A DNA stretch of 58,171 bases, counting the filler, from Sphacelaria rigidula (Eukaryota), in assembly GCA_964200075.2 (NCBI GenBank). It is 5 parts of 5 records of this genome, joined end to end, with 100 filler letters (N's around TTAATTAATTAA, not from the genome) between each part and the next. Parts side by side here need not be neighbours in the genome. Positions count along the whole stretch, not along the records: positions 1 to 11,555 come from CAXNAA020004790.1; 4 more parts are not named here. One strand, 5' to 3'. Below, one piece after another: positions 4,255 through 58,171 of this stretch (its first letter is position 1; the number at the start of each line of letters is the position of its first letter). The position numbers were made by a program, and so were the translations under genes. Under the pieces are notes generated by a model. The model searched no databases, had not been told where the DNA came from, and worked only from the letters and a program-made list of their open reading frames with translations.

Positions 4255-7200
4255 TTAGATCGGCGGTGGAGTCGGCGCGGGAAAGAAGGGCGAGTTGATA
4301 TAAACTTCCCAAGCCACTAACGCAACAACACAGCACCACGTGGCTGTCTTGAGCGCCTTAACGACCGGGCCTTCCTCAAACGTCTCTGCCTTCCTCTTCA
4401 AGGCCGCCTCTTTCTCCCTGTCTACTAACGGGGACAGCTTCGAGTCGATATTCTGGAGAGGCGAGGTTCTCTTCTCCGGGGAAACTTCTCCAATGGTTAA
4501 CCCGACCGCCGTTTTCTTCGTGCGCTGTTCAAACGTTTCGGCCTCTTCCCTTTGCTTGGGCACGTAATCTGCGAGATCTGGAAGATCCATCTGTTCATCG
4601 AAATTGGGGAATGCAGTGTCAACGTCGTACGTGGGTGAAACCACGGGCGGGGAGCAGAGGGGCGGTCAACACAAGATCCTAAACATGAATGAGCAGGACA
4701 AGTCCACCGAGTCATTCGGAAAAATGAGGACAGACAAACTTCAGTCCCGCACGCTAGTGGAGGAAGATGATGAATTATGAAAATACTACAAGGGCGCAGA
4801 ATTCGATTTGGATTTCAGCCCGTATCCAGGCTTGTGTAAAGCGACTACTTGGATACGTTCCGTCAGATACTTGCGGGAAGATAAAAAATGCTCCGCTATG
4901 AAGCTGCCCACTCTTCTTGCCCCTCGACTGCCCAGGTGTGGAGTTAAGCGCTGGAACCTTTGAATACGTGTTTTAGATCGATGCATGGAGTCTAGAATGG
5001 AAGGGCGCCAGTTCGGGGGAACCCCAGCACCTTCAAGCAAATGTGCATTACTCGTGTGTCACCGATTTGATCGAGTCCAATAATGCAGCGTTGGTCCCAT
5101 CCATGGAGAGTGGAGATCCAAGCTCCCCGCACTGACGAAGCGGAAGGGGCGTCTTTTGTGGCCGGTGTACGGTTCCGCACCTGCACATCTTTGGCGGCTC
5201 GAGTACGGTCGACAAAGGGGATTGCGTGCTGCCCGGGGGTCGTCCCTGACATGTTTTTGAAGGCGGCGGTCACGGAATGCCTGCGGTTGCAAGTCCACAG
5301 CTGGTGGAGGGATCCTAGGGCCGAGAGCAGGGGCTACGGCAACGCAGGGGATTGAATCTTCGTTTACACCGAGGACCGCAACCAGTTGCGAGGGTGATGT
5401 GTGTTGACTGATGTCGCTCAGGGTAAATAGACGTTTCGGTCCTACAGTGCGGTTTGCTTCCTTTGTTCGTCGTGCTCCTGTAGCGTTTCGAGTTGCAGGC
5501 AGTCAGGACTTTTACAAGATTCCTCGTGAAAGTTCTGACTGCCCGCAACCTGAAATACTACAAGAAGCCGAAGAACAACGTAAGTAAACCACACTGTAGG
5601 ACCGAATCGTCTATTTACCCTGAGCAACATCAGTCAACACACATCACCCTCGCAACTGGTTGCGGTCCTCGGTGAAAACGAAGATTCAACTCCCCGTGTT
5701 GCTGTAGCCCCTGCTCCCGGCCCTAGGATCCCACCACCAGCTGCCGACTTGCAACCGCAGGCAATCTGTGGCCGCCGCCTCCAACAACATGCCGGGGACG
5801 ACCCCCGGGCAGCACGCAGCCCGTTTGTCGATCGCCATGGAGCCGCCAAAGATTTGCAGGTGCGGGACCGTACACCGGCCGCAAAAGACGCCCCTTCCGC
5901 TCCGTCTCCTGCTGGAAGCTCGTCGAATGTCGAGCAGTCCGCACCCTCTCCTAAGGCGGACCGTGAGGTTGTGGTCGACTATCTCCGCAGAAACAAGATC
6001 GGCTTTGGGCACGCATTTACGGGAATCTGCCGCCAACGTGGCGGCACTCGCTGTCCCTAGACTCGCGACATCATCGCGCCGGCCCACTGCAGTCAAGTCC
6101 CGGCCTGCCGTTGAGTCGTCATTCCCTAAAAGCGACTCGCAGCCGTCACGGAGTCCTAGTACCTTGCCATGCTTGACATGGGGTTGATCGGAGAAAGCAG
6201 CGATGCTGAAGATCAAGAGGAGGCAGAGGGCTACGGTACCTCGTCTGCACCGTCCTTGGGCAACAGCCACGACGAATGAGGAGACGCCCCAGGTACGATC
6301 GACCTGGGGAACCCGCGAGAGACAATGACGGCAGCAGTCCAGCACCTGACACGTCTAGCGAGTCTTTCAGCCTATTTTGCCGATAGTAAACAAAGCACCA
6401 ACGCAATCTCTGGATCTTCGGAACTGCTCTTCAGAGGTCACTCTGGTCTTCGGCTTGAGTAAGCCTGTCTTGATTGCAGCAGACTCTGCCTTTAGGTACT
6501 TGCGTTTTGCATGTGCTGTGTTGGTACATTGCAGTACACGCATACAATCGGACTCGAACAGATCGGTTATACATGAGAGATGCACACTGGCTCGGTAGTG
6601 CCCGGGCGCCCATCAACTGGCGTCCTTTCATCCTAGAGTACATGCATCGATCTGAAACGTGAGTGTTGGTACCCATGGTGCAAACAACCGTGCTCGTTAC
6701 CTTTCCACTTTTATTCGGTGGGGTAGAAAAAATCGGGTATTTGGCGCTTCCCCATGTACAACTGGTCATTTTCGTGTGTAGCGAATCTTGATTTTTTATT
6801 ATTCCGATCCCCGTGAGACAAGATCAAGATCGGAGAGATAACAACGCATGGTTGATTGCACCATGGAAACCGAAAAGCGTTCGAAGATTTGAGCTCATAC
6901 TGTCAAGACCGGGATGGGGAAAATGTTGAGGGATTCCAGATTTTCTCGTCTGTTTTCCTTCCTAGCACCAGCTTGTGATAGGAAGAGAAAATAAAGAAGG
7001 CATGAAGGTGGATGAAACGTAGTTCCCAGGATTTAGAATCAGCAACAAAATATGTAACGACCCGTGTGCCGTCAAGTGTTGGGTGAGGTTTCCTCTCTCC
7101 CTTCGAAGAAAAAAAACAAAACGGCTACCCTGCATGCTGCATCCTCCTTGCTTCAAACGATTGATCATCCGCCAGCTGGCCCTCTGGAAAAGCCGCACCG

Positions 7201-7897
7201 GACGATTCCAACAGCGGCAACTCACTGTTGTACACAGCCCTAGTGTGGTGCACGTGCTTTTTGTAACCACTTGCCCTAACCCGTCAGTGATGGAGGGTAT
7301 TACGATACCGCAGCGCCGACCTACCTTGGACTTGACCATCCCATCGTTAGCCTGCATGCCGGACCAATCATCGGTGAAGAGATCCGTCACCGGCCTCATC
7401 CCCTGCTGCACCTCTACGAGCGCTCTCGTGGCCTCGCCCCTCTCCTTTGCCTTGCTTTCATCACCGCTCGCCGACTCCGGAGCTTCTCCCTCAGCCTTCG
7501 CGGAGGGCGTAACCGCTGCCGGTTCTGGGGGTGATGGAGCAGATTTGGCGCTCTCTTTGTTATTGTCAGAGGGTGGCGTTGAAGGTGTGTCCTTTCTTCG
7601 CCGTCGTTTTTTGGCGGCTGCAGCCATCACCACAAGACCCGAGTTTGTGCGGGTGTGCAGATGAGTGTGGCAAAGTCGGCGGGACAGGGAGGTTACTGCT
7701 GTTGTTGTTGTGCTGTCATGCTGTCCAGGCGCTGCTGTCCCTCTTGTTCTTGTGCACCTTCTGCTGCCAAGGCGGGTCGTATGTAGTTGTTGTTGGGAGG
7801 GGATTGTGTTGTACAGGGATACTAAGAAACCTTCGGCACCGTGTGTGAGGCAAGACGTGATTGAGGCCACTGCCAAAAGGGTCCTTGTGGAGTGCAT
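4255..7897 (-). CDS. Two-exon hypothetical protein (~302 aa), probably plastid-targeted, with a C-terminal transmembrane helix; exons 7897-7325 and 4590-4255
   Basis: Exon 1 (573 nt, phase 0) starts MHSTRTLLAVASITSCLTHGAEG-F (signal peptide plus Phe, then an R/T/S-rich transit-like segment) and ends KSK|gtagg. Acceptor gaacag|ATGGAT continues in frame as MDLPDLADYVPK...TATWCCVVALVAWEVYINSPFF to TAA at 4257-4255. Confidence 0.75.
4971..6657. mobile_element. Palindromic (foldback-type) insertion in the intron of the 4255-7897 gene
   Basis: Inner arms 5134-5519 and 5522-5906 are reverse complements (about 84% identical over a 118-nt segment aligned by hand) with essentially no spacer. Outer arms 4971-5082 and ~6546-6657 also pair (TTTTAGATCGATGCATG...CATGCATCGATCTGAAA). 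CGTG flanks both ends (4967-4970, 6658-6661). Confidence 0.75.
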
Positions 7898-10934: not shown

Positions 10935-11555
10935 GTGCGTGTCTATGTCTATGTCTCTGTGTTTATGACGGCCCTCTCACAGCACAGGATTAAGGTACCA
11001 GAGTTGTGTGATGCATTCGAATGCAAACCACTATCTCATGGTACCCCCCTTGCGCACCCAGTTCATCTTCAACATCATTTTCTCAAGCTGTGTCCGTCAT
11101 GACTAGTAGTCAACTTGGCTTGGTTAACATAAATATCCGTCGGAGACCTTCTTCATGTTTTGCCAGCCGTTGGCATATACCGTGAATGGCTCTGAATAGC
11201 ACGATAACTCATCACCCAGGGGTTGTATTCAGGACGGGGTAGGGGAGACGTACTCATTTGTCGCTTGCCTTCGTCATTTGACTATTTACCACGCATCCCC
11301 TTTCGAGACGGAGCACCGTTCTTTTTCCTAATAGACACCTCCAACATTTGGGCACTTATTGCTGTTCTTCCCATGCACGATACAGTAACCTGTTACATAT
11401 CTTATCCTCTTCCTGCTTCGCCGTCTGTGGCCATCATCTTCCTCCTAGTATAGCGACCGTTTTCTTGCTACTATCTAATGGGGGGGGGGGGGGGGGGGGG
11501 GGGGGGGACCTCTAACCAAAAACCCGCCAGGGGCCCCCTTTGCCCGCGAACTTTT

Positions 11556-11655
11556 NNNNNNNNNNNNNNNNNNNNNNNNNNNNNNNNNNNNNNNNNNNNT
11601 TAATTAATTAANNNNNNNNNNNNNNNNNNNNNNNNNNNNNNNNNNNNNNNNNNNN
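11556..11655. other. Artificial contig linker (N-run, TTAATTAATTAA, N-run); identical linkers at 23210-23309, 34864-34963, 46518-46617
   Basis: Palindromic six-frame-stop 12-mer embedded in Ns; linker starts are exactly 11,654 bp apart. Confidence 0.98.
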
Positions 11656-11805
11656 GATTGATTCGTACGATTCGAATCAATTGTACTAAAATCAATTAAT
11701 TTCCAGACGACTCATTTTTTGTCCGACCCTTGAAATGTTGGCCCAGATGATGTGTCTTGCGTTGAGCATCTGCAGGCAGTCAGGGGGAAAATCATTAGCC
11801 TGACC

Positions 11806-16400: not shown

Positions 16401-17901
16401 TCCTCGCGACAGCTCGATTTGCGACAAGAGGCGCGAAATTTGGAACGCTTCCGAGAGGATTTCAGAGGCGATCCGTCACTGGTGTTCCCGCGTCCAGTTC
16501 ACCCTTGGGTTGCCGACAGCGTCTTGGTGGAAGACTTCAAGGTGAATCACTCAATCCCCCTGTAGGGTTACGGTTTTCCCGTCATGTCAAGATCTGCCGA
16601 TCGTCAACGAATGAGAACATGTAAGTGTCACTTGGCATGGATGGGCTCCTTACAAATCGATCTCTGCCCCTCATGTGCTGAAGGAAGGACAGCCCATTTC
16701 CATGTTCTTCGGAGGGGAGGAGAGCCGAAGGTTGGCCGGGATGGGCCTCAAAATGTTTCTCAAGATGGTGAGTCGCGAAACTTTCAAAAGTGATCAGTTG
16801 CTCATTGTGACGAGGCACATGAAGTGAAAGCGGCAATACAATCGTGCTCAACAAACCATTCCATAAACAGTTTGGCATACCAATGAAGTGATTAATAGGG
16901 CATGTTATGAACGCCGACGAGAGAAACATTTACAGCCGTACCCACCTGGTCTATTTCGTCCAACTAACTCACTCTGGGAACGTTTCCAACTGCCGTTCAA
17001 CTGTGCGAGGCGGAGTAGGTGTTCATCAATAACTTCGTTCATGGAGACCTTCATCCAGGGAATCTCTTGGTGGGTCGGCAAGATAACAGCGAGGAGCCAT
17101 GTCTTGTGATCCTTGACGCCGGCATCGTGAGCGAGCTGGATGAAGGCGACAGGAAAAACTTCGTGGATTTGTTCTACGCGATCGTTGTAGGAGATGGCAA
17201 ACTGGCCGGGCGCCTCATGATCGAACGGGTGAAGAGAAGGAGTAACTATCGATTCAAACTGTGCTGCGCTACAATATTTGGACACATTCACCCTTTCCTT
17301 TCCCACTCAGGATATGCACTGATGACTGTGCATGCGCTGGCCAAGGGCCAGAGAGTTGCCATGCCTGCGTCGCGTTATGATCCTGTATCGTTCGCGGACG
17401 ACTTCGTGGCTTCATATTGCATGCAGGCCCGGAACCAGCGTTGTAAGGACCCGGACAGATTCTGCACTGAGGTCGATTCACTTGTGCAAAGAGCGAGATC
17501 AAGCGGACTTCGTCTTGGGCAGATTCAGGCTGGACAGCTCCTCACGCGAATGTTTTCGTTGTGCTTGCATCATGAGGTGCGTGCGATTTGGCAATCGTCT
17601 GATAGAGTGTTCGCTGGCTTAAAGCACAGGATGTGAGGAGCTGTACCATGCGCATCTTGGTTCATGGTTCCTACAAAGTCAATAGGACGGTTGTAGCAAT
17701 TGCACCGGTCCTGAGCTTCGAATCTGTCCGGCATGAAATCCACAGGTGAAGCTGGAATCCAAGTTTTCGTCGGTGGTGCTCGCGATCGCTGTTCTGGAAG
17801 GCGTCGGCAGGAGCCTGGACCCTGACTGCAACATTCTTGAGGCATCCTTGCCAGTGGTTGCTCGAGCGAGTACCATGCAGATGGGATTCCACACTGGTTA
17901 G
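13401..17901 (+). CDS. ABC1/UbiB-family atypical kinase, ADCK2/Cqd1-like. Confident exons 14931-15019, 15542-15680, 16061-16264, 16413-16541, 16684-16767, 17019-17228, 17427-17576, 17746-17901; 5' exons (13401-14820) uncertain
   Basis: Spliced motifs in order: GPTFIKAAQWVSTRRD (KxxQ), LGSGCVAQVYKG, IAVKV, LDLRQEARNL, HGDLHPGN, LDAGI, VKLESKF, LEGVGRSLDP; TAG at 17899-17901. Confidence 0.92.
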
Positions 17902-18094: not shown

Positions 18095-21000
18095 CTACCA
18101 CGTGAAGCGATCGAGTTGGTCCTGAACTTCCTTCAAGTCGATTTGAACCTTCTTGCGCTTGTAGAAGATGGGGCAATCCCTGTTTGAGCACAGCACATCT
18201 TGGTGGAACGAGCCTTGGCAATCTTGACACTGCGTCCATAACCGGCTGAAAAGCATCTGCTGCTCGTTTACCTGCATCAAGAGATGTGCGGTGATTTTGA
18301 ACCGACGACCGAAGAAGAAATGAACGATCGAGGCCATGGGCACCACCATCTTATCTTGCACACAAATTCACCGAAAGAGGTTGTTACACCACTCGGCAAG
18401 GGTGGGAAATTTATCGGAAATTCGTGGTTTCGAATAAACTCTAACGATCGAAGGCATACCGAAAATCCTCGCGGAAGGGGGGTGCAAAGTGTTCCCTAGG
18501 CAAACTGTGCGTAGCCCGACCTCAAATTGGCGCCCCGGGCAAAACGCGTTCTGCGCACGCCAGGAACACAGCAACCCCATTCAAGATCCGCATTTCGGGA
18601 GGTTTTCCACACTAAAATCAAGTGACCACCACTACTGCATTGAAATGACGATACACCTGCACAGCACGAAAGTATGAAACATATCTGTGAGCTCACCTCT
18701 CGTAATTTTGCGGCGTAAATAACCCCCTCCTTGGGTCTGCAATGTGCGCATAACGTCTTCTCCTTCTCGCTGATGGGCGCCCTACACCCCATACACTGCG
18801 AATATTTCGAGCAAGGCAGTTGGGATATACGCTTCGACATTCAAGATAAATTTTTACGACAACTGGGCGAATCACCCATGCGCGTCATGCAGTATGTACC
18901 GTTGCACTCAAGCCACTGGTGCAATAACACGCGGAATACGTTCATAAACTTCCCTGAGAGAAGACCAAGAGCAACATCATGTACGACACGGATGCTCGGA
19001 CACAAGATACCAGGACATCCCGGAGGAGGCAATTATATTCGATTAATCGGGACATCCCGTGACGCATGTACTGAACGCCCAAGGAAAACAAAGGATGCAG
19101 GAAAATTCGAGTACTTCCGCCGCGTCGCTCACGATTCACACGGATAAATAAGCAGGAAACATAGTTGCAGTTGTCACCTTGAGCTTTTTGACAGCAAACA
19201 TCATGATGCCACCAGCCCTTGCAGTGGGTGTCTTCTTGACGATTGATCGAGTGTGTTCGCCGCGAAGTAGCGCGGACGGATTGTCGATGATGGGCTGCCG
19301 ACCAAAGCAAACATCAACGTGAAACATACAATGCCGATTGAAGACTCAGAGGGTATGCACGACGTTGGATATAGATTTACAGAAACGGTGCCCTGAGGTG
19401 ACAACAATCACCCATACGCCGGCCACTCAACAGCACCTACGACAAAAGAGTAGAAACAGTCCAGAATGAAGCGAGTTGACAGCTACGCACCCGTTATCTC
19501 AAAATGCCCCAGCCGCCAAAACCTTGGGGGCTGGCGCATGACGAGCGGCTGGGTTGCAGTCAAATTGTAATCCTAAGCGGCGCTTTCGACCCAACCCACT
19601 AGGTAAACAAGCCCAACAGCCATTCACCTCGAATAGACGGCCAAGCGGCTTGCTTAGCTGGTTTGTGAGATAGTACTCCGTGTCGATGGGCAGGTTGTTC
19701 TCCAAAACAAAGACCGGGTCTTCGCTTCGTTCGTAGGCGGCAGCTCCTTTAGCTGCCTGCTCAGTTACGACGAAACTCACGGGTGAGAACGTGCAGTAAT
19801 ACGCACAGCAGAGCTGTTTCGAGCTACAGGAGAACACGAGATTGTTGCTCCCGTGTAACACCTGGAGCTGACTGGCACTGAACTTTACTCTGTTTTTGAT
19901 CGCTCACAATATGCCCCACGATTTCCGCCGTATAAGAGGTGAATGTGCACCTGAATGATGACGTAAGCCACCCGATCCCCGACATTGGGAGCTGTTCCTG
20001 GGTCTCGCTTTCTCATACGCATCGCGAGCTCTACATGTGCTTGTTTGGCGCTGTAGCCCTCGCTGTCGGCGCTCTTCGCCAGAGCCTTCGTGATAACGAG
20101 AAGAGATATGTCCATCTTGTTTTGGAGGAGATCAGAGATTACCTGACGAGGGTATGGGGACACGGTAAATGATATTGCCGTCAGAATAAACAACTGCGAT
20201 TCCATGTGAACATCAGACACAGTATACCAGCTGCGTACTATCGGGTCATGGTCGACTCATACTCGAAGGGTGGATCGGTGAAAGAGCCGGAGTTCGTACA
20301 TGTCAAAAGGTTCACCTGCTTGGAGTAGCCGATCGCGCCTTGCACGTCCCTGTCGATCAGAATTTTTCGCAAGCACGTGTCGACAACCTGACGTTGTAGT
20401 CGACAAGGGCAACGGGAACATCGAGACGTCAACATGCGGGACATGATTTTTGGTCCGACTAGAACGTGCGATCGCTACCTTGCACCCGACCGAGCAGGCT
20501 CATTTGCCCTAGGCGGCCATCAGTGCATCACCTTGCGAACGAGTAGACAGTTGTCGCGTCGAACCGTTTCGAGTCCCTTGGTATCCATCTTGTCATACTT
20601 CTCCACCTTGGTCCACAGCAGACCCGCATATCGTTTCTTATTCATCAGAAGGTACGGCCAATATACCTGAAATATAGATGGGGAACAAAAATCTGATTCA
20701 TGAACGACATAAGACAGCTGTGCAATACAGGCTAGTTCACGTTCGTGTACCGAATTTTGTTCATCCGCGAATGCTCTTGCCGATTGGTGGCGTTGGACCC
20801 TCAGAAATTGCACACAAACACTACGGGGTACCATGATCGGGGGTCCCAGGATTTGGGGGGATTTGTGGGAATCGGGAAGACCCCCGGAAGCCGTTCAAAA
20901 GCGGAGAACCTCTGCAATGTCATTAATGTCACATTTTTTTCAATTATGTGAAGATTGTGTACAAATTCGACTGGGAATCCGTATTTTGCATTTCAGCACA

Positions 21001-22384: not shown

Positions 22385-23500
22385 GGACGGGGGCGGGGGG
22401 GGGGTACTCCTGGTCGTGCATTCCGTAGTCATATGACCATTGACTTCGCATCCCTACAAAGCCGGGACGGAGCACGCCGGGTTTTCGCCGGACAAGGCTC
22501 GCACTCAATCACCAGGCGAGAAGCGTTGTGATGTGTTCGGCGACTCGTACGAAGGGTGGGCTGCATCCTGCTAAGACTGTTCGGCCCGAAGCGTACTGAT
22601 AATCTTGCACATGGGTGACAGCCTACAATGAGCCGCTTCATTTTCTGATGTCGCCACTTCCAGAGACAGCCACGGCTTACACACTGCATCCCATTCAAAC
22701 ATTACATAGTATGATTGTCCTTCGCGCGGAATCGAGGTTTTCCCATTCCGCACAAAACGATCTAGATCGATCACCATCATGGTTACCGCAAAAAAACGCA
22801 AGCGCTCAAAAAAAAACCGGCAACCTGGTTGTCTAGCTTACGCAGTGAGTGGCGTGTTTTACGGTGTCATTGCCAACCGACGCCAAACCCATGCGGGGTT
22901 CGTCCCTACAAAGCCGGGAGGGACTACGCCGCGTTTCCTCCGGACCAGGGAGGGTGGGAGTACTCATATGTTGCTTATCTTAGTCATTCAACCATTGACC
23001 ACGCATCACCTTCGAGACGAAGCACCGCTCCTACTCCCAATAGAGGCACGTCCGAAATCTGAGCGCTCATTACGTTTATTTCACACATGATACACAAAAA
23101 ACCTTTCGCATGTCTCATCAGGGGGGGGGGGGGGGGTACTCATGATCTCGCACGTCGTAGTCGCCAGACCATTGAACATGTATCTTCACAAAATCCGGCC
23201 GGAGCACCCNNNNNNNNNNNNNNNNNNNNNNNNNNNNNNNNNNNNNNNNNNNNTTAATTAATTAANNNNNNNNNNNNNNNNNNNNNNNNNNNNNNNNNNN
23301 NNNNNNNNNAGCGTCATCGCCAACCGACGCCAACCCCACCGGGGGTCCGCCCCTACAAAGCCGGGACGGAGCACGCCGGGTTCTCGCCGGACCAGGCGGA
23401 GGGGGAGGGGGTGAGGGGCGGGGGGGAGGGTACTCATCCGTTGCTTGCCTTTGTTGTTTGACCACTGACCGCGCATCACCCTTCCGAGACGGAGCACCGT
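22385..23500 (+). repeat. Dispersed G-tract repeat family (copies 22385-22497, 22865-23030, 23120-23209 and, on the next contig, 23310-23500); other copies at 1-100(-), 11220-11320, 12985-13080(-), 46480-46517, 46618-46730
   Basis: Shared blocks CCCTACAAAGCCGGGACGGAGCACGCCGGGTT.TCGCCGGAC.AGG, (G)n-GTACTCAT, and TTGCTTGCCTT.GTC.TTTGACCA.TGACCACGCATC.CCTTCGAGACG.AGCACCG. Confidence 0.85.
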
Positions 23501-41500: not shown

Positions 41501-44500
41501 TTACTTTCTCGTCGGAGCTTTCGGAAGATGAAGCAAGCCTTCGGCATATGACTACAAGAACGATGATATTCAGTCGAAATTTGCCTTGACACCTCTTGTG
41601 GCCATCAGTTGTGGAATCAACCGTCGACACGCAAAGTGTTGTCATCATGCCAGCATGTGATGATGTGGGGCCAGAACGAATGCAGGGCGGGGTACGGAAG
41701 ACAGGGTCACGCAGCCGTCAAAGACTGGGCCGGCAAACGTCTGCTTCGCGTGGCTAAAGAGGTGAGTTTACCCATTCTACTTTATCGGACATTCTTTACG
41801 TGTGTTGATTGATTATTTTCCACGGCTTCGGCTTCAACTCCGGCATCCCTGTTGTTTGCTGGTAGAGGGCATCATGTTCGTCGGGAATGGGAAGTGCTGT
41901 GAAGTTACCGCGTTTTTGGATTTCCTTCAGCTTTGAGCTGTTGTTTGCCTCTTTTTAATGTGCGAGTCGGAATGTGCTCTAGGAATAGCTCCGGAAACAT
42001 GACTTGATACGAATGAGATACACGTGTGCATGATTGCTTCTCACAAGATCTAGACAGTTAGTCTTCGTCGTGCTCGTCCCCGAGCTTAGTTGTGGTCTAC
42101 CGCCGCACACTACCGTGCAATGACGCCTTCAGGCAGCGTTTTTAATCTCCCACAAGCATCACCTGGGGTCAAGCTCCTCCGATTATGCCCAACCAATTTC
42201 ACCGTTCCTTCGATTGTCTCCCACTGCTTCCCTCGCCGCAAGGTGTTTCGAGAATACCAAAGGCAACTGTGGGATCCCCGGTGGGGGGCAAGTTTCACGG
42301 TAAGCAAGGCGAATACGCCGCTAAGAATAAAGTGGCACGTTCATAGCACTCGCAATAAGTATCGAATTGACAACGTTGAAAGTATCTTGAACGCGCCAGA
42401 AATCGACAAATGTGCTCATTTGGGAAAACTCCCTATTGAAAACTGCTGCTTGCCTGCATTCGAAGGTTCAAGCAAGCTAGAGCTGCCTTGCCACACTGAT
42501 ACACGACCCCTACAATAAGCCGAGAAGTGCATTAGGGAGTGATCCACACCGTAATGAATAGTTAGTCGAGGAACATCCTAAGCGGAAGCTTTTCCATTCC
42601 AGTCTTGGGGTAGCCAAACTGGCTCCAATGTGGGTCGGGGTTTGGCCGTTGATGACTTCCAACACACTTTATGAAATATTCTCAGTTTTTTTTTCCGCCG
42701 TGGTACCGGCACAGGTTGGAGAGCACGAGGGATTTTTCACCAGCTTTCGGTGGGGCACAGTGGGGGTGATATCATTGGACACGCTAGAGCTGTCGCTTCT
42801 ACACGACGGACTTGCCGTCAAAGCGCACGACAGCGCTCGCGGGCTTGATGTGAAGAAACGCATGCAAGAACGGGGTAGGAACGAAGAAGATTTGATGCTC
42901 GGAGAGGCGCAATGGGAAATGTTGGATGGTGTCCTTGCAAACCAGGTGCGTGCTCGGGTGCGGATAAGGTATAAGCTGGAGGGGTATATTTCAGATATTT
43001 CTCTTGCAAGCGTGGCTCATTTCCGGACGAAGAAGGTCGCCCTTGAAGGGGTGATGTCGCGGCCTCCCGCCGTTTTTCACACGGTAGGGGTGAATGATGG
43101 AACTTGGATTTGAATTTCGACTGAACAGATACCGAAATCATTTGACACGAACCCGCTACCACAACCGACAATATTTTGCTTCGAGCAAAACTGATCCCAC
43201 CCCCCCCTCCCCCAGAAAAGTCAATGGTCTTATGACTGTGGCATGCATGATCATGAGTAGACCCCCACATAAAAGTGGCTGATGTGAGAAGGCAAAATTT
43301 ACATGTGAATGAACATGACAAAAGCCGAGCAGACAGACCAGCTTGGAAACTCACACCACTGTGGCTCATATGAGGCGCTTCGAGTAGTCTGAAACCAGCT
43401 ATTGTGCCCTGTGTGGTAATTTTCTTTTTGGCAGTTTGGGGGATGGTTTGGAGGAGGAAGGGGTATTGCAGTACCACTCAAAACATGTGTGACAACTGGT
43501 TGAGGTGGAGCTGCCTGTCGAATATTCGTAAATGATGCATTTCGTATACTTCTCGGCTTTACAAAAGAGTGCGAGCTGACAAGAAAGCCGACGCGAGATC
43601 CTTAAGAAAAGACTGGAAGATGGTGGTAGAGTCGGCCTGGTCGTGCTTCGTACACGGTACCAACTGGCGTATCCCCAAGTAAGTAGCAACCATGTTACCA
43701 TGTTGTATTCAAGAACACCGTGAATTTTCAAGTCATGCGCCGCGCGTTAACTGTGATATCGACTTTCGGCTTGAACGCACAGTTACTCAACCCATCACTG
43801 CGAACGATTTTGTAGTCCTTCCAAGGGTTTGCGACGACGCTTCGAGGACTGCTGCGCCAGTTCTTTTCCGGCCCTCTGATCGACTCCTTGACGGTTAAAA
43901 TTTGGTCTTCTCGGCGAACAGGATAAGCTGGCGACACTGTTGGTGGTGACAGAAGTGCCCGTTGCTTGGCATGATACGGAGACATTCTTCGCTAACAAAA
44001 AGGTAGCAACGATGTTCCACGAAACCCGTCTCCACACATGCACGTCGTGTCATAACGTCGATGCATTTTCGTGTCCGATGATGTAGCTACTGTAGGCTGA
44101 TTCCATAAAGCATACTGACACATTCCGTGACTACACAGTGCCCCCCGTATTCCCGTCAAGCCTGCTAGAGAAACGGTATCTGGTACAATGCTGGCCCAGG
44201 CCTCCAAGTGGGGAATATTTGCAGTTGTGACAAGCTCCAGGCAGCTGTAATCCCGCGTTCTCGGGATGATGTGATGCTGGAACCAGCTGTGGTTCAACTA
44301 ATATCGTAGATATGTCGCTAGCAAACTGATGCGCACATCCACCGACCGCGTGCCCCCTCCAGAACCAGCAGAGCAATGCACCTGCTAACCTAGAAGACTT
44401 CTGGAGCGGTAGACCAATCCAACAACGTGCTCTTCTGAAGCGCCTCCTCGAGTGGAAAGCCGAAGTGCAAGGCAGAGAGGTAACTTCCACGGAGTAGATG

Positions 44501-46456: not shown

Positions 46457-47690
46457 ATCGACCGATCAATTAGAACAGGAGGGGGGGGGGGTGTACTCAT
46501 GATCATGCATGCCATAGNNNNNNNNNNNNNNNNNNNNNNNNNNNNNNNNNNNNNNNNNNNNTTAATTAATTAANNNNNNNNNNNNNNNNNNNNNNNNNNN
46601 NNNNNNNNNNNNNNNNNGCCCCTACAAAGCCGGAACGGAGCACGCCGGGTTCTCGCCGGACCAGGCTAGGAGGGGTGTACTCATGATCATGCATGCCATA
46701 GCCATCAGACCATTGACGGGGGGGGGGGTCTGTTGTGATACTCTGTTTGTACTGAGCGTTGAATATCCGTGTAACTACACCAGACACGCCGGTTTTTCTG
46801 TCCTCAAAACCCGCCCAAAAAATGAAAGAGCCTGAAAAACGCCCAGAACGCCACCCAACAAAGATCCATCCTCTATTTTGAACATACCCGTCGCAAACAA
46901 GGTAGGGTTTCTGATGTAGCAAATGACCGTTCACAACTGGGGCCGACAGCGTTCCTTTTGAACGTACAAGCACAAGTACACGAGTGGCGCGTGCTCCCTA
47001 CTGTGTCAATTGCTGCCGAATCCCTTAGCACCTAATGATGCACGCGGACGACAAGTCCGCGTCCGTTCGGAGTCTGCGGGACACCGAAACAGTATTGAGC
47101 CACCGCGCGCAAAATTAAGGCCTGACTCGTGCGGAAGAAGTGCGAACTAAGTTTTGGATGTTTATTTTATGGGGCATTGTCCGAAACCTCAATTTTCGCA
47201 ATTACGAGTGCTTTCGTGCTCCTGGCCTACGCTATTACGGTGGTATGCGCGGCGTTTTCTCGGTACGAGGTTTGAATTTGTAGTGTTTGCTTCGTACGCA
47301 TAAAATGTCACAGCGTTGCAGACGATAAGTGCAGCACATGTTTGCACTGCACACGCCATGTGTATGTATGTATGTGCACGCTCTTTGTTTTCCCTCACAC
47401 CTTTAAGTCCTCCCCTTCTTCGAGAGGAGCTCGTGGTCTCGAGGCCAACCGATCTTTCCCCCGGGTACACGCCTTGCAAATTGGTTTCACGGATTGAATC
47501 ATGACCAACACTGCTCCAGCATCGCGTTTGCTAAACACGTGCATTTCGACGTCCGACGGTGGGCGTACTTCGTGACGTACAAACGAGAGGGAGGGAGATA
47601 GCACGCGGGGTTCTCCTATTATCGACCAAGAACAATGTTTTTCATCCTTCTCTTGACTGCAATAACACATATACGCTCATTTCACATGGT

Positions 47691-49999: not shown

Positions 50000-52900
50000 C
50001 TAGGACCATTTACGTGGAACGACTTCGCGCTGCAATGGATATCGTTCATTGTTTTGATATCGTCCACAATCTATTTCGCGTGGTGAGCGCGACACAACGC
50101 CTTCCCGTTGTGCACTTCTCAGCTGCTGATCAAAAGAGTGAGCTACACTTGAAGTTTCCTCATTGAACCTCCCATTGACCCGATTTCGTTCAGTTCGTAC
50201 CTCAGTGCGTGACCGAAGGCCTGTCGTACAGTGATGATCGTCACTGCCTCCTGCTTTCCCACCTCGCTCCACATTGCTGGGTGCACCTTTTCCAGTCCCT
50301 TCTCGACTTTTGCCCGCTCCCGCCGCCTGCTCTCCGTCTTCGTCCTCTGGCAGTGTCACCATACAGCCTCCGCTCCCGCGGCCCTCAACCTCTCGAACAC
50401 TACTGTCTCCTGCTTTGCCCTCTTGCTTCATACTGCTGGATGTATTATTTCCGGTCCGTTTTCGATTCTTGCCCACCCCCGCCGCCCAACCTCTGTCTGT
50501 GTCCTCGGACAGTGCCGCTATACAACCTCCGCTCCCGCGGCTCTCAACCTCTCGAACATTGCTGTCTCCAGCCTTCCCATCTCGCTCCACACTACTGGAT
50601 TCATTATGTCTGGTTTCTTCCCGGTTCTTACCCACCCTTGCGGCCCGCTCTCTGCCTGTGTCCTCGGACAGTGCCGCTATACCATGTCCGCTCCCGCGGC
50701 TCTCAACCTCTCGAACATTACTGTCTCCAGCCTTCCCATCTCGCTCCACACTGCTGGATGCATTATTTCCGGTGTCTTCCCGGTTCTTACCCACCCTCGC
50801 CGCCCGCTCTCTGTCTGCGTCCTCGGGCAGTTCCGCCATACAACTTCTGCTCTCGCCGCTCTCAACCTTTCGACCACAACTGTCTCCTGCCTTCCCAATT
50901 TGGTCCAAACTGCTGGGTGTGCCATTTCCGGACCCTTCTCGATTTTTGCCCACCCCCGCCACTCGTTTTCCGACTTCGTCTTGGGCCTGTTTCGCCATAC
51001 AACCTTTGCTGCCGCTGCTCTCAACCTCTCGACCACTACTATGTCCCGCCTTCCCATCTCGCTTCACACTGTTGGGTGCACCGCTTCCGGTCCATTCTCG
51101 GTGCTTGTCCGCACCCGCCGCCTGCCCTCTGTCTTCGTTCTCGATCTGTTTCGTCTTCCGATCTCTGGGCCCGCTGCTCTTGAGCTCTCGATCGTCATTG
51201 TTCCCTGCTTTCCCATCTCGCTTTACACTGTTGGATGTACTATTTACGGCCCCTTCTTGACTTCTGCGCATTCCCTCCGCTCGCTCTCTGTCTTCGTTCC
51301 CGCTCGGTGTCTCCATACCATACTTGCTCCCATTGCTCTCGACCCCCCGACCACCACTATCTCCCGCTTTCTTAGCTCGGTTCACACCGCTGGGTGTGCC
51401 ATTTCCGGCCCCTTCTCGACTTTTCCCCAACCTCGTCGCCCGCTCTTTGTCTGCGTCTTCAATCTGGTTTGCAACACGAGTTCTTCTCTCACCGCTCTCA
51501 GCCTCACGACCACGACTATCTGCTGTTCTTTCACCAGGTCGGTTCACACTTTTGGGTGTGCCATTCCCGGTCCCTTCTCGACGTTTACCGACCCCCGCCG
51601 ACAGCCCCCTATCTTCGTCCTTGGTCAGTTTCGCCATACAATCGCCGCTCCCGCCGGTTCCAATCTCTCGACCACAAACATCTGCTGCTTCCTCATGTCG
51701 CTTCACAGCGCCAGGTGTACCGTTTTCACCCCCATCTCGCCGTGTGCAAACCTCCACCTCGCGCTCTCTGTATTCCTCATCGGTGAGTTTGGACATACAG
51801 TCTTCGCTCACATCACTGTTGACCCCACGACCACAGCTACCTCCTACGTTCGATGTTCGGCTTACAGTGCCAGGTGTGTCATTTCTCACCCCTGTTCGAC
51901 CTGCGTCCGAGCCCGTTGCTCGCTCTCCATCCTCCTTCTCGGTCAGTTCCGTCATTCGATCTCTGTTCACTCCACTCTCAACCGAGCTGAAGGCGTCGGC
52001 GCCGACGTGCTCTGACGCCACCATGAGTGCACCGGAAGGTATATGTCTAATCATGGTTGTTTTCCCTCGTTCCCTCTGTTTTCGGGCAGGTTCTACTTCC
52101 TGCGACTCAGCGACGGCTCTACCCCCGCCACTGAGATCGTCAGAGCTTTCTCGATCGTAACTACCCTCAATACGTGTCAATTCAACATCAATACTACCTC
52201 CACCACCTGCACCACCCCTACCGCTACCTTCACTACCACTACCTTCACTACCACTGCCAATGCTGCCACCATCACCAGCATGTGTACTACCTGCGACCCT
52301 AGGCAGCATTGAAGAAGATGCCGAAACAGGGGCCAGGTCGACCGAACCCACCAATGCCCCTTCCCGCTGGGTTTCTCTAGCCCCGCTGCTACCGTCTCCA
52401 TGGTGTCGTCGGTGAGCGCCGCGAGGTCCAGTCGCCCCGCTGCCGAAGTCCAAGTCCGCGTACTTGCCCTCCGCTCTGTGACTGTCAGACGCCGTTCGTA
52501 AAGTAGTGTCTGCTTCATCGTTTATATCGCCGCTGATCGCGGCACCCCCCATGGCTCGGGGTGTGATCACACCGCTGACCGTTCCGCTGACATCGACAGG
52601 GCGAGGAAGTGATATGGAAACTTCCCCTCCATTTGTTGGTGCGGCGATCTTGTTGCTGTCGCTCGATTTTGTCTTGTATCCCGTGGCATCCGCCAAGAGT
52701 GGGGTTGACTCGCCCTCCCAAACCATGTCATTGTCCCCAAGCGCTTCTTCCACCGGCGGGCCACGCCCGTCACTCACGCCCTCTCTTGTGTCATGCCAAG
52801 GCATCTCAGTTCTTTTCCCGCGAGAATGCGGTGTTCTTGTCACAGTATGGACACTTTCCCGGCTTGTCAGGTCCACTTGCGAGGTCTCGGGCGCTGCATC

Positions 52901-55695
52901 CGTCGGAATCATCCCGCTACCACCGCGAAGCCGAGTCGGCCTTGGTTTTTGGTTTCTCTTCTCTTCATCGGAGTTCTGGGCATTTCCTTCAGCTATACCA
53001 ACGTCTTCTCCGTATCTGTTACCACCACCTTCACCACGGATCATCTCTTGTCGATCTAATTGGGGGGACGAGTGGACCCCGTCGCCCGCGTGGAGGTCGG
53101 GTGCTGACGCTTCACTGCTGTGGCGATGTCGTCTATCCGACACATGCCGATCAGGCATCGGTCTGTTCTCCAATATTGTAGCACGATGGGCAGGCTCCGT
53201 CGCCGATTTTCGGGGAATTGTTTCCGGGTCTTTACTTTCGGATTCAACGTTGTACCGACTACCATCTGTATCCCGGGTTGTATACGCGTCACCATCGCCT
53301 GACTGCGGGTCGTCCCTCAAAGATTCAGAGCGTTCCGTTGTGATGATCAAGCGCTCAGATTCGTCGGAATCTTCGCCGCTGAGATGATAAGGCGCTTCCA
53401 TCACCTGGGAAGTTTCGAATGCATCCATTGTGTTACCATCCCCATCCACGCTTCCGTATATCCCCTCGTTACCTACTAGATCTGCCTCTGTCAACGACCC
53501 GGTGCGCAATTGCTTGAGCGCTTGAAGGCGTTGTCGTAGGGCCCTCAATCGGTCAACGTGTTTTTCCTTGAGCTGAGGAGACAGATTGTTTGTCGTCATA
53601 CCCCCTCCGTTTGCTGCAATGACAGCGTTGATGGCGTCAATGTCCAGCGGGAGAAACATGTTCCGCCTGCTGTCCCTATCCCAATCAATGTTCAGGTTTC
53701 CAGGAGAACGCCGCGTTTGAGTTAGTTAGGGCTACACGGGTAAAGAGCTATCATACCTGAGAGATATATAACATATGATTTTATTATGGCTAAATCCCCC
53801 CGAGGCACTTGATTTTCTTCAGAGGTTTTGCGTATCTACACGATGATGCCTCGACCTATCAAGATTTGAAACGCGCTTCGCGAGGTTGTGTGCTCCCGCA
53901 TGGTGCTACCTGATAGGGTTTTCGGCCACCACCAAACGGTGTAGATACCGAAATGAACTTATTCGGCAAAGCCGATGCGCCATGGGCCTCTCACCCTTCA
54001 CCGATATCGGGTAATGCAGCACGAACCCGCGAAGCATGTTTGAAGATATCCTCGTCGACGATGCACTCGATATCTTGGTCCGACTTGAAGCTCGGGGGTA
54101 CGACGTTGGTGTCGGTGATAGTCTCGAGCAGCAGCCACAGGAAAGCCGTGTACTGCGGTGCCGTATTGGTCGTTTGTCGTGCCAGTGTCGACAAAGCATA
54201 GTGTTCGAGGTAGGCAGGGTCAGCCATGGGTTCGGGGAGGAAGTGAACCTATTCAGCGTTGCGGACAGGTATTTCTGCCTCAAGGCGCAGCCCAGGCTAC
54301 TTGCGTGCTCATCAGCTCCAAACGCAATGCCTTCAACGGGAAAGCCGCGTAGCGCCACATAGCCCTCAGTTCTCGTTTTATACCCACACCGCGATACGCA
54401 TTGATTTCTCATATACATCCCCCCACCTTCCTTTACCGAGCCCCACGCCGCGTATCAGGTTTCAAAGCCAAACTGAACAAGCAATATGGCACTGTACCCC
54501 TAACTGCCATTGATTGATTGTTGTGATTGATTGATTGATTGCCGAACGTTAACTCATCCCCTAGGATTCATGATCCAGCCATGATCATTATCCACGGGAT
54601 AAACGTACCCCAGGTGAACGAAGGGGAAACACTCGCTCAAGGAAACTCGACGAAAGGAGAAGACAAAAGAAAGAAGCATGTGTACGTAAAAATATTGGAC
54701 TCCGCTAATGATACCTCCTCCTCATCGATGTTCTCGGTCCATATATCAGCGAGCTCAAACATGCTTGAAAAAAACGCCTCCTTCGGCATCTTGCCCCCCC
54801 ACCTCCTGGTATCCCTGAGCCAATCTACTTCCGCCGAACGGCAAGTCTCTTCATCAGTAGTGTCTGGAATCTTATAGAGGACGACGTGTTGGAACAGGAG
54901 CGGGCACAGAGAGAAGTCTGTCAGAGCGGGGAAACACGAACACGAAGTGTACAAAGGCAGATTTTCTTCGCTATCCTCTCAGCCGACAACACACTCCACG
55001 GTACGGGCGCAGTACATTGGAACGCTCACCAAAGCCAGGTGCAGCTTGCGGTTAAGCTGAACATAAGATTCCTTCTTCATTTCCCCAGCACCGTCCGGGT
55101 TAAGCCCGGGGAAGCACCAGTACTCGTTACTTATTTCCTGTGTTTTCATGGTGAGAGCGATATGAGCAAGAGAATAACAAAAGGCGTGCGGAGTAAAGAA
55201 ATGTTGCGACATTACCACGGAGGGTGTAACTTACAGTGTTGCGTTTAGGCAGGATGGAGGGTTGGTGTTAATCCAACACCGATCGGTTCCAGACGGTAGC
55301 GCACAGAACCAACCAAGACTAATGCTCTACGCTTCCACAATACTCGCATAGGCCGCACTCATGGCAGGCGCAATTGCAGGGAAGAAAGATTGCGTTGCCC
55401 CAGCCATCCCCTTCCCACCCCCTGTGACAATATTTCAAGTGAGAGTTTTTGTTCACGTGACCTGTATCAACGGCTTTTTCCTCAAAGCATGCCGTAGCCT
55501 GATGCATTGCGGGGTGTTGACGGCGGGGTTTCCCTGGCGCTTGTACGGTACGGGATCATCCCCAGGTCTCACAACAGTCACCACACCTTCGCGCTGGAGG
55601 TTCCACATCACCTCCCGCTGTGCACGAGTAAGCTCTCTGCGTTCTTCCACCGTCATCCCTGCGTCTACTGACCGCCGACTGGTATTCGCTGGCAT
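50000..55695 (-). CDS. Hypothetical protein with an N-terminal EF-hand-like helical domain and a long disordered repeat region; exons 55695-55462, 55137-55030, 54870-54715, 54152-53995, 53666-~50000
   Basis: Frame-preserving GT-AG junctions give ...NPDGAGEMKKESYVQLNRKLHLALIPD...EVDWLRD...FFSSMFELADIWTENIDEEEYTAFLWLLLETI..., then the 1219-aa ORF. The first in-frame stop is at 50002-50000 unless spliced earlier. Confidence 0.78.
50240..51990 (-). repeat. Coding tandem repeat, 159-bp unit (53 aa), about 11 copies
   Basis: CTCAACC recurs at 50384, 50543, 50702, 50861, 51020 (period 159). Unit example GKAGDSNVREVESRGSGHGIAALSEDTGRERAARVGKNREETRHNESSSVERD. Confidence 0.95.
54508..54677 (-). mobile_element. 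Same retroelement-like 3' end with (AATC)n tail
   Basis: (GATT)n at 54510-54540, then GATCCAGCCATGATCATTATCCACGGGATAAACGTACCCCAGGTGAA. Confidence 0.55.
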
Positions 55696-56777: not shown

Positions 56778-58171
56778 CTTTGCGAAAGAGCAAGCGCGGT
56801 AATGTAGACGTCCCGAAATGCACTCGTCAAGTAGCGTTAGCTCAGTCGTCTGTACGCATAATACGAGCCCCTTTTCAGAGTAGCCTCCATATGCCACAGT
56901 TGCATTGTGGCTTGGTTGAAACTAATTTATTTTCGAGAGTCAATCATAACGAAAGTATACAAACGATCCTGGAGATACAAACATCTAGTGAACATTAAAA
57001 ACACAAAATGCCACGACACAACGATGATGGGGAGCCAAAAGGCGGCTCGTGCCCGCCTGGGCACCCGCATAATGGATTCTAACCTCAAAACCTTACAAGC
57101 GAAATTTCACGGGTCGGACAAATCATCGCCGGTTCGAATCACCATATCCACGATTTTTCAGGCCTGATTGCTCGAAAGATAGAAAAAAGTCGACCGATGG
57201 TCAAAAAGGTTCCCACGCAACTTTTGCGTCATTCCGCGTGCCTGGGCTGCGCGTACCTGGATTGCAACGCTGAAAAGAAAGCCCAAGGATTGATTTGTAC
57301 GGTACGAATCAACGACACTAAAATCAAGTAATTTCCAGACGAATCATTTACTCGTCCAACCCGTGCAAAATTTGAAGGGTAGTCACTTGTAGCAGCCACG
57401 GTTTGATGAGGGTCGTCTCTAGCAGTCAATTCTTCCTATGCACAAATTACAATCCGTATGCATAATTACAGCAGGTTGACTCACATCCATTTTCTATACT
57501 ACCGTGGACGAGATAGGTATCGATGTGCAAAGCACACCGCGCTCGGCACATCTCACCCACTAGCGCGACGACCGTGAAATGCCCTACATGGATGTAATGC
57601 AAGTATCGATCTCAAGCCCTGAAGCATTGTGATTGTGTTCGGGCGGATGTTTGCGTCGCCTGAACAATCTGGGAACCCACCGAACATTTCCAACAGTTTT
57701 GGGCAGTGCGACTGCGGGTACCGAAACGCACCACCAAACACGAATACGACGCTTTTGAGGGGACGTACTGCCAGCGCGGCACTCCTTCGACAGGTAAAAG
57801 GCACGGTGGTGGAGCTCTTGCTGTGGTGGTTGACGTGGGCTGGACACAGTGCATTTGATGTACTGAAGCACTACCTGAACATTATCCATGCATACAAACT
57901 CACCCCGCAACGGGAAACACGCATTTGAACCGCGGGATTGTTGGCACAGTGCTCACAAAATAGCCGTAGGGCATGCCACAGCTCGATATTAGTGGGATCT
58001 CCGTGACCGGCACCTGTGGGGGGTGCGGCCATGCTCTGTCTTCTAAGTTGCACGGCCTCCTGATTTTTACCGGGCCCCACATGGCATTATTGTGAAGAGA
58101 GTCATCCTACGATAGGGGGGGGGTATTTCGTTGCACGAAAAAAGAGGCTCATAAGTGTGTCAGACATCATT

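Follow-up and report, generated by a model that had tools for sequence, protein, structure and literature searches.

As set out in the passages that PMC4079207 devotes to them, foldback transposons carry very long terminal inverted repeats (TIRs), often with internal tandem repeats, and most of them are Mutator elements. Here we describe an element of comparable shape, located at positions 4971–6657 (1,687 bp) of a 58,171-nt window from the genome of Sphacelaria rigidula (assembly GCA_964200075.2), the window being the whole stretch of DNA that was analysed. As in the foldback transposons of Drosophila (FB, Galileo and Tetris), Arabidopsis (FARE) and nematodes (Tm1), inverted sequence dominates this element, accounting for 2 × (114 + ~400) of its 1,687 nt, and the middle domain is almost absent, coding capacity is lacking, and a candidate duplication flanks the element. 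It differs from them in being best paired in its interior rather than at its tips, and in the 624 unpaired nucleotides that separate its arms from the right terminus. Galileo duplicates 7 bp of its target, and 7–10 bp is usual in foldbacks of the Mutator or P type, as against 4–5 bp for the present element. For the arms of FB, Galileo and Tetris, the portions of PMC4079207 concerned with these families describe tandem sub-repeats, and for Tetris and Mutator-type foldbacks duplications of 8–10 bp, whereas the arms of the present element have no such sub-repeats and its candidate duplication is shorter. The element thus has the shape of the classical foldback lineages but lacks two of their features.

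MITEs, or miniature inverted-repeat transposable elements, are usually under about 800 bp long and present in high copy number. With these and other non-autonomous TIR elements the present one shares the terminal inverted repeats, the short candidate target-site duplication, the lack of a coding open reading frame (ORF), and the intronic position; it differs in its length and in the large internal palindrome. Target duplications of 4 bp are characteristic of Sola, Ginger1 and Academ (3–4 bp), and of piggyBac and Kolobok, where the duplicated target is TTAA. The candidate 4-bp, non-TTAA duplication found here points to the first three families; the sequence of that flank, CGTG, argues against piggyBac and Kolobok, and the termini of the element do not start as those of Ginger (TGT...ACA) do. 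The Repbase rule for non-autonomous elements, in the wording available from PMC4455052, refers to the same length of target-site duplication and to alignable terminal positions 1–11. Our leading interpretation, to which we give about an even chance, sees in the element the dead remains of a class II (TIR) transposon, non-autonomous, foldback in shape and of an unclassified family, which form an intronic insertion with a candidate 4-bp duplication and a secondary, internal fold-back duplication.

Palindrome, termini and flanks

The two halves of the element were compared by global alignment of the left half with the reverse complement of the right half. This places two arms, 5121–5520 (+ strand) and 5521–5919 (− strand), back to back about an axis at 5520/5521. 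They agree in 349 columns and disagree in 47 (88.1% of ungapped columns matching), with a further 7 gap columns, and there are four unpaired bases at the symmetry centre (5519–5522). Further out, the left terminal inverted repeat (4971–5084, +) and the right one (6544–6657, −) agree at 85/114 positions (74.6%). The left repeat begins with the 17-nt tip TTTTAGATCGATGCATG, which matches the right end at 16 of its 17 positions, and the right repeat ends in ...CATGCATCGATCTGAAA. Between arm and terminus, the right half contains a non-coding region of its own of about 624 nt (5920–6543), whose ORFs belong to no Pfam family, opposite some 36 nt of left-specific filler (5085–5120) that has just scattered, non-significant short matches to the right half. 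These results agree well with the initial annotation of the locus, which had described an almost loopless palindrome on this axis, termini that pair again, and an asymmetry of 640 versus 50 nt, close to the 624 versus 36 nt found here.

The repeat search resolved the same architecture into three inverted pairs, 5223–5518/5523–5818 (296 nt, 88% complementary, 4 nt between the arms), 5134–5220/5820–5906 (87 nt, 89% complementary) and 4970–5081/6547–6658 (112 nt, 76% complementary). In all, about 1,028 of the 1,687 nt of the element lie in inverted pairs. When the element was compared with the window by blastn, the two inner pairs merged into a single match of 774 columns (5134–5906, 87.1%), and the arms and termini of both sides were recovered by all three methods. 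Identity is unevenly distributed along the halves: it amounts to 80, 68 and 78% in the termini, climbs from 84 to 98% centrewards in the arms, and drops to 76% in the last ~50 arm columns at the axis. Within the termini, successive blocks from the tip match at 16/17, 21/26, 15/28 and 33/43 positions. The 47 substitutions between the arms comprise 29 transitions and 18 transversions; as the differences are mostly substitutions, with few gap columns, they represent true divergence and not read error.

Folding of the 841-nt core on the sense strand of the host gene yields −724.8 kcal/mol, compared with −316.2 ± 6.6 kcal/mol in 20 shuffled sequences (z = −61.7), and the predicted structure is a nearly continuous hairpin of about 400 bp, with the four central bases as its loop. 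Such an inverted repeat lies well outside what chance would give. The sequence examined consists of five pieces of 11,554–11,555 nt each, the element being in the first, and no other local inverted repeat as large was found in any of the five. Tandem Repeats Finder (minimum score 30) detected no arrays of sub-repeats in 4800–6850, and the repeat search no direct-repeat families in 4500–7200.

Direct reading of the sequence confirmed that the element is flanked by CGTG on both sides (4967–4970 and 6658–6661), as had been pointed out before, and we consider these tetranucleotides a candidate target-site duplication; an alternative reading of the repeat has 5 bp, ACGTG (4966–4970 and 6657–6661). 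A 4-bp flank match arose by chance in 0.41% of 200,000 random position pairs in the window, that is, with a probability of 0.0041 per boundary choice, and flanks of 8 and 9 bp showed no repeat, the repetition being limited to 4–5 bp. The GC content of the element, 56.4%, exceeds the 49.7% and 47.6% of the adjoining intron, with a step at both borders.

Host intron and relatives of the element

The initial annotation placed the insertion inside an intron, and a predicted intron of 2,734 nt (4591–7324, −) now makes this location very probable. Exon 1 of the host gene (7325–7897, −) starts with an ATG at 7897 and runs for 191 codons, ending in AAG before the donor GTAGGT (7324–7319). The putative acceptor is a cAG ending at 4591, and it would be followed by candidate exon 2 (4255–4590, −), which is in phase with exon 1 and consists of 111 codons (4590–4258) and a stop (4257–4255). 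The ORF of exon 2 starts after the first AG past an in-frame stop, and both the acceptor and the joining of the two exons are to be taken as predictions. On this model, 380 nt would separate the element from the acceptor, and 667 nt would separate it from the donor. Introner elements are likewise non-autonomous and associated with introns in intron-rich eukaryotes; unlike them, the present element has its ends well inside the intron and supplies no splice sites, and an Introner model was discarded on the distance between donor 7324 and acceptor 4591, on the one hand, and element ends 6657 and 4971, on the other.

A protein-level search with the exon-1 ORF left just two of 3,109 candidates at E ≤ 0.001. 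One of them, P0001 (311 aa), comes from an independent contig and is the same ORF; it is listed at 100% identity, and one residue differs, in the read-through into the intron. The other, P0002, is a distant relative with 34% identity, whose alignment extends nine residues beyond the proposed donor, the P0002 ORF stopping eight residues later; support for the donor therefore comes from its consensus and not from the exact end of conservation. The host protein, including the exon 2 ORF, has no Pfam family, and the Atlas lead for exon 2, PsbR (0.82), is weak and falls under the evidence level of the tool. Exon 1 begins with a presequence, also present in P0002, in which a hydrophobic stretch is followed by phenylalanine, and which is reminiscent of plastid targeting in algae with red-derived plastids. 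The same intron contains a small MITE-like structure at 6668–6871, 10 nt beyond the element's right end, with 26-nt inverted arms (85% complementary, 152 nt between them) and no clear flank duplication to be seen.

The element is non-coding. Two of its ORFs, and then 14 ORFs together with the homologue P0003 introduced below, were searched against Pfam, and none reached the cut-off; three matches below it (E 0.046–0.13) all fall far under the curated scores. The initial annotation, which had recognised no transposase, was right in this respect.

Predicted ORFs served as a proxy in looking for copies beyond the window. The ORF at 5584–6060 (158 aa) has a sole match at E ≤ 0.001 among 1.84 billion representatives, P0003, a protein of 183 aa from another contig (E 2e-24, 51% identity). 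By tblastn, the likeness to P0003 covers 5644–6153 on the plus strand with 88/172 identities, running through in-frame stops and past the point where the right arm gives way to the right-specific region, and in the left arm it is split by a frameshift over two frames (28/48 and 23/41 identities). As the match runs through stops and a frameshift, what is shared is a likeness in DNA rather than a conserved protein. Over 5906–5920 the right half and P0003 are colinear. The arm's outer edge is therefore no boundary of an element, and of the two halves the right one is the more complete; the left half has either lost the right-specific region of about 620 nt or never had it. The earlier proposal that one half is internally deleted gains support from this colinearity.

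In the frame shared by all three sequences, the arms agree with each other at 35/41 residues (110/123 nt) and P0003 agrees with either arm at 23–25/41. P0003 is probably another member of the same repeat family, and it seems too diverged to be the same locus in the same species. It is unlikely to come from the orthologous intron, since no comparably distant homologue was found for the exon that lies 1 kb away. An Atlas search with P0003 gave no usable match. In a collection of prokaryotic genomes, which holds no eukaryotes, none of 546 pattern stretches was confirmed, and the 27-nt stretch that is identical in both arms had no exact match; phage and plasmid collections contained no match to the element. 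Among the papers listed on diatom foldback transposons, TIR elements and MITEs, those on foldbacks treat microRNA foldbacks or unrelated matters and none describes such an element, which does not show the family to be undescribed.

One event or two

The proposal put forward initially was that the element is a head-to-head dimer of one unit that was inserted as a single piece. In its most complete form, it would involve a unit of about 1.15 kb, dimerised in one event before insertion, within a foldback family with identical ends, the left half having later lost about 590 nt. Much of the structure is in keeping with this origin, which we regard as a possible, though tentative, second choice. The symmetry extends from tip to centre, with the same order of blocks in both halves and one large indel; the termini start and stop symmetrically, with 114 nt each; the CGTG on either side implies joint insertion of the two tips; the right half is the fuller version, as judged from P0003; and the rise of identity towards the centre is expected if neighbouring arms are homogenised. 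Nevertheless, the single step is not established. Equal divergence would be expected of a one-step dimer, unless the arms were homogenised, and the termini differ at 29 of 114 positions (25.4%) as compared with 47 of 396 (11.9%) for the arms (Fisher p = 0.00086), which weakens it. Moreover, the contrast within the termini between the well-matched tip and the inner block at 15/28 resembles conserved (binding) blocks more than uniform decay. P0003 is further from the arms than these are from each other, so that the palindrome need not be a family trait, and the left filler has no significant match in the right-specific region.

We prefer a two-step origin to this one-step dimer. Unless homogenisation has intervened, the duplication of the arms would postdate the terminal repeats as well as the separation from the P0003 copy, and the inner palindrome may be peculiar to this copy, having arisen later, perhaps in situ, by rearrangement of an ordinary TIR element. 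On either reading, that the arms stop together, 4 nt apart, argues for a single fold-back copying event and not for two independent insertions. A palindromic element nested in an older TIR element was also considered and rejected: there is no direct repeat at 5121/5919, and P0003 is colinear across the border.

According to the two-step model, the element would have been inserted into the intron of the minus-strand gene with duplication of 4 bp of its target (CGTG). A transposase supplied in trans would presumably have recognised the conserved terminal ~17 nt (TTTYAGATCGATGCATG), and perhaps sub-terminal blocks, and made a 4-bp staggered cut. The right half, with its succession of terminus, ~620 nt and ~400 nt, would retain the ancestral order of the unit, and the left arm of about 400 nt would be an inverted copy of the innermost part of that half, probably generated by one fold-back or template-switch copying event in repair or replication. 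The new arm would have replaced most of the left interior. This copying may have taken place before or after the insertion at the present site, and would be younger than the terminal repeats and later than the split from the P0003 lineage. Judging from its termini, diverged by 25%, the element today is most likely inert apart from its transcription within the intron, where the sense-strand transcript is predicted to be able to form an imperfect RNA hairpin of about 400 bp, a potential source of small RNAs. If the insertion with a 4-bp duplication is true, the intron before insertion would have carried a single CGTG, in ...GAATACGTGAGTGTTGG...

Several observations weigh against this interpretation. 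The blastn search for further copies suggested in the initial annotation was run on the window, and neither the element nor its terminal motif has another copy there: at word size 7 and E ≤ 1, blastn returned self-matches and one 14-nt chance match, and the motif, with up to three mismatches allowed, occurs at the two termini and nowhere else in the window (0.41 matches expected; 5 of 100 shuffles reached two). P0003 is the lone homologue found, that is, one member on one 2,299-nt contig, known from its ORF alone. A minus-strand ORF of 222 aa over the right-specific region (5689–6354) matched none of 1,461 candidates, and a profile of P0003 and both arm ORFs retrieved P0003 itself and nothing else among 8,000 scored candidates. 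No transposase is recognisable in the element. As to the target-site duplication, it comes from a single insertion and may be read as 4 bp, 5 bp, or just GT if the inverted repeat is extended, since the G and C of the flanking CGTG lengthen that repeat by one base, leaving the boundary uncertain by 1 nt. Finally, the rise of identity towards the centre could come from distance-dependent gene conversion in a whole-unit dimer formed in a single event; conversion between close arms, together with a stabilising decay at the axis, could account for the identity profile.

An unlikely alternative is that no mobile element is involved at all, and that template switching in replication, or fold-back repair, produced a local inverted duplication inside the intron, the likeness of the termini belonging to that event and CGTG being there by chance. 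Palindromes of this origin include the programmed rDNA palindromes of ciliates and those of palindromic amplification in yeast and mammalian cells. The inverted duplication and the few unpaired bases at the axis are points in common with them, a centre without spacer is what fold-back copying characteristically leaves, and the decayed centre would stabilise such a palindrome; the structure is single-copy in the window, no transposase was found, and the flank repeat is short and occurs in one instance. Those palindromes, however, are chromosome-scale or terminal, whereas the present one is interstitial, measures 0.8 kb, and is enclosed in an element with inverted termini of its own. A purely local origin also has to contend with the existence of a diverged homologue elsewhere when the neighbouring exon has none at intermediate distance, with the GC step at both borders, and with a flank match of 4–5 bp exactly at the ends of the inverted repeat. 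Template switching, furthermore, normally leaves direct duplications too, and none was found in 4500–7200.

We find it more improbable still that the element represents an unrecognised family of almost spacer-less palindromic transposons in an intron-rich and probably photosynthetic protist, in which dimers of a single-ended unit would move through a snap-back (hairpin) intermediate, make a 4-bp duplication unlike that of the classical foldback lineages, and feed hairpin RNAs into a small-RNA pathway. As for an integrated hairpin-replication junction, raised as an option in the initial annotation, nothing favours it: no viral or plasmid domain was found in the element or in neighbouring ORFs, the phage and plasmid collections gave no matches, and host-gene sequence follows directly on both sides, for which reasons a viral or plasmid junction was rejected.

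A very remote prospect is that the locus has been retained as a functional intronic source of hairpin RNA, whose transcript would be processed into small RNAs directed, for example, at other family members. Inverted-repeat constructs are reported to silence in a diatom in the portion of PMC2724275 that bears on this point, which we count in its favour, as we do the nearly continuous hairpin in the sense-strand fold and the excess of transitions among the arm differences, some of which are accommodated as G–U pairs. On the other hand, arms diverged by 12% and a decayed centre look neutral. Least credible of all is an artefact of assembly or amplification, for example an inverted, chimeric read or a hairpin adapter that was overlooked: spacer-less palindromes are a familiar artefact shape and the assembly has gaps and poly-G runs where its pieces end, but an artefact from one molecule would leave near-identical arms instead of the 47 substitutions, rich in transitions and with few gap columns, on which this model was rejected, unique sequence of the same gene continues on both sides, and an asymmetry of 624 versus 36 nt is unlike a read chimera.

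The wider window and implications

The five pieces are separated by N44-TTAATTAATTAA-N44 linkers (11556–11655, 23210–23309, 34864–34963 and 46518–46617), and repeats run over at least two of these joins, so that neighbouring pieces may be adjacent in the genome. A multi-exon gene for a family-B DNA polymerase is indicated by at least three neighbouring minus-strand ORFs (19502–20894) that match successive parts of PF00136 in Pfam, and an exon of an ABC1 atypical kinase is located at 17019–17633 (+). From the split polymerase gene and the kinase exon we conclude that the genome is intron-rich and eukaryotic. Of the 119 ORFs in the window with a length of at least 110 aa, 106 were scanned, and none had a Pfam domain related to transposable elements; scans of the whole window with ARAGORN (for tRNAs) and Rfam gave no matches.

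Other repeats were noted along the window. A dispersed and locally tandem family occurs at 22387–23207, 23313–23407, 43218–43266, 46476–46517 and 46618–46716, with a spacing of about 447–452 nt; its members consist of a poly-G run followed by TACTCATGATCATGCATGCC..., plus a CCCTACAAAGCCGGGACGGAGCAC block, and cluster at the ends of pieces. Its GATC-ATGCATG core is superficially like the tip of the element, blastn finding no significant likeness. Poly-G and poly-C runs of up to about 28 nt, often beside AGTCATCCTACGATAGGGGGGG, are found at 1–120, 11480–11538, 28991–29237, 34800–34830 and 58090–58115, and may reflect a repeat family or else an artefact of sequencing. A 62-nt direct repeat, 85% identical, is common to the start of piece 2 (11656–11717) and the end of piece 5 (57288–57349). 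Among inverted repeats, one pair (468–774) has 33-nt arms that are 85% complementary and 241 nt apart, and another (34744–34786 and 34978–35020, 91% complementary) consists of tRNA-like copies (…GGTGGCTCAGTTGGTAACC…) that flank a linker; ARAGORN recognised no tRNA there, and the copies may be a tRNA-derived short interspersed element (SINE). Finally, an open frame of 1,241 codons (50003–53725, −) without a Pfam family, in a region of strong GC and AT skew, contains at least eight tandem repeats of 159 nt (53 codons) at 50243–51817.

Returning to the element, if our leading interpretation is correct, it would be one more decayed non-autonomous transposon, ordinary genome debris whose description aids repeat annotation, and at the same time an example of a foldback shape that has arisen secondarily inside a TIR element. 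A greater weight would attach to it only if the source genome has many palindromic copies with variable 4-bp duplications. In any case, a 0.8-kb palindrome with four unpaired bases has persisted here to a divergence of 12% and is most decayed at its centre, which fits the idea that central asymmetry stabilises palindromes, and it places a predicted hairpin of about 400 bp in the pre-mRNA of a gene that looks expressed.

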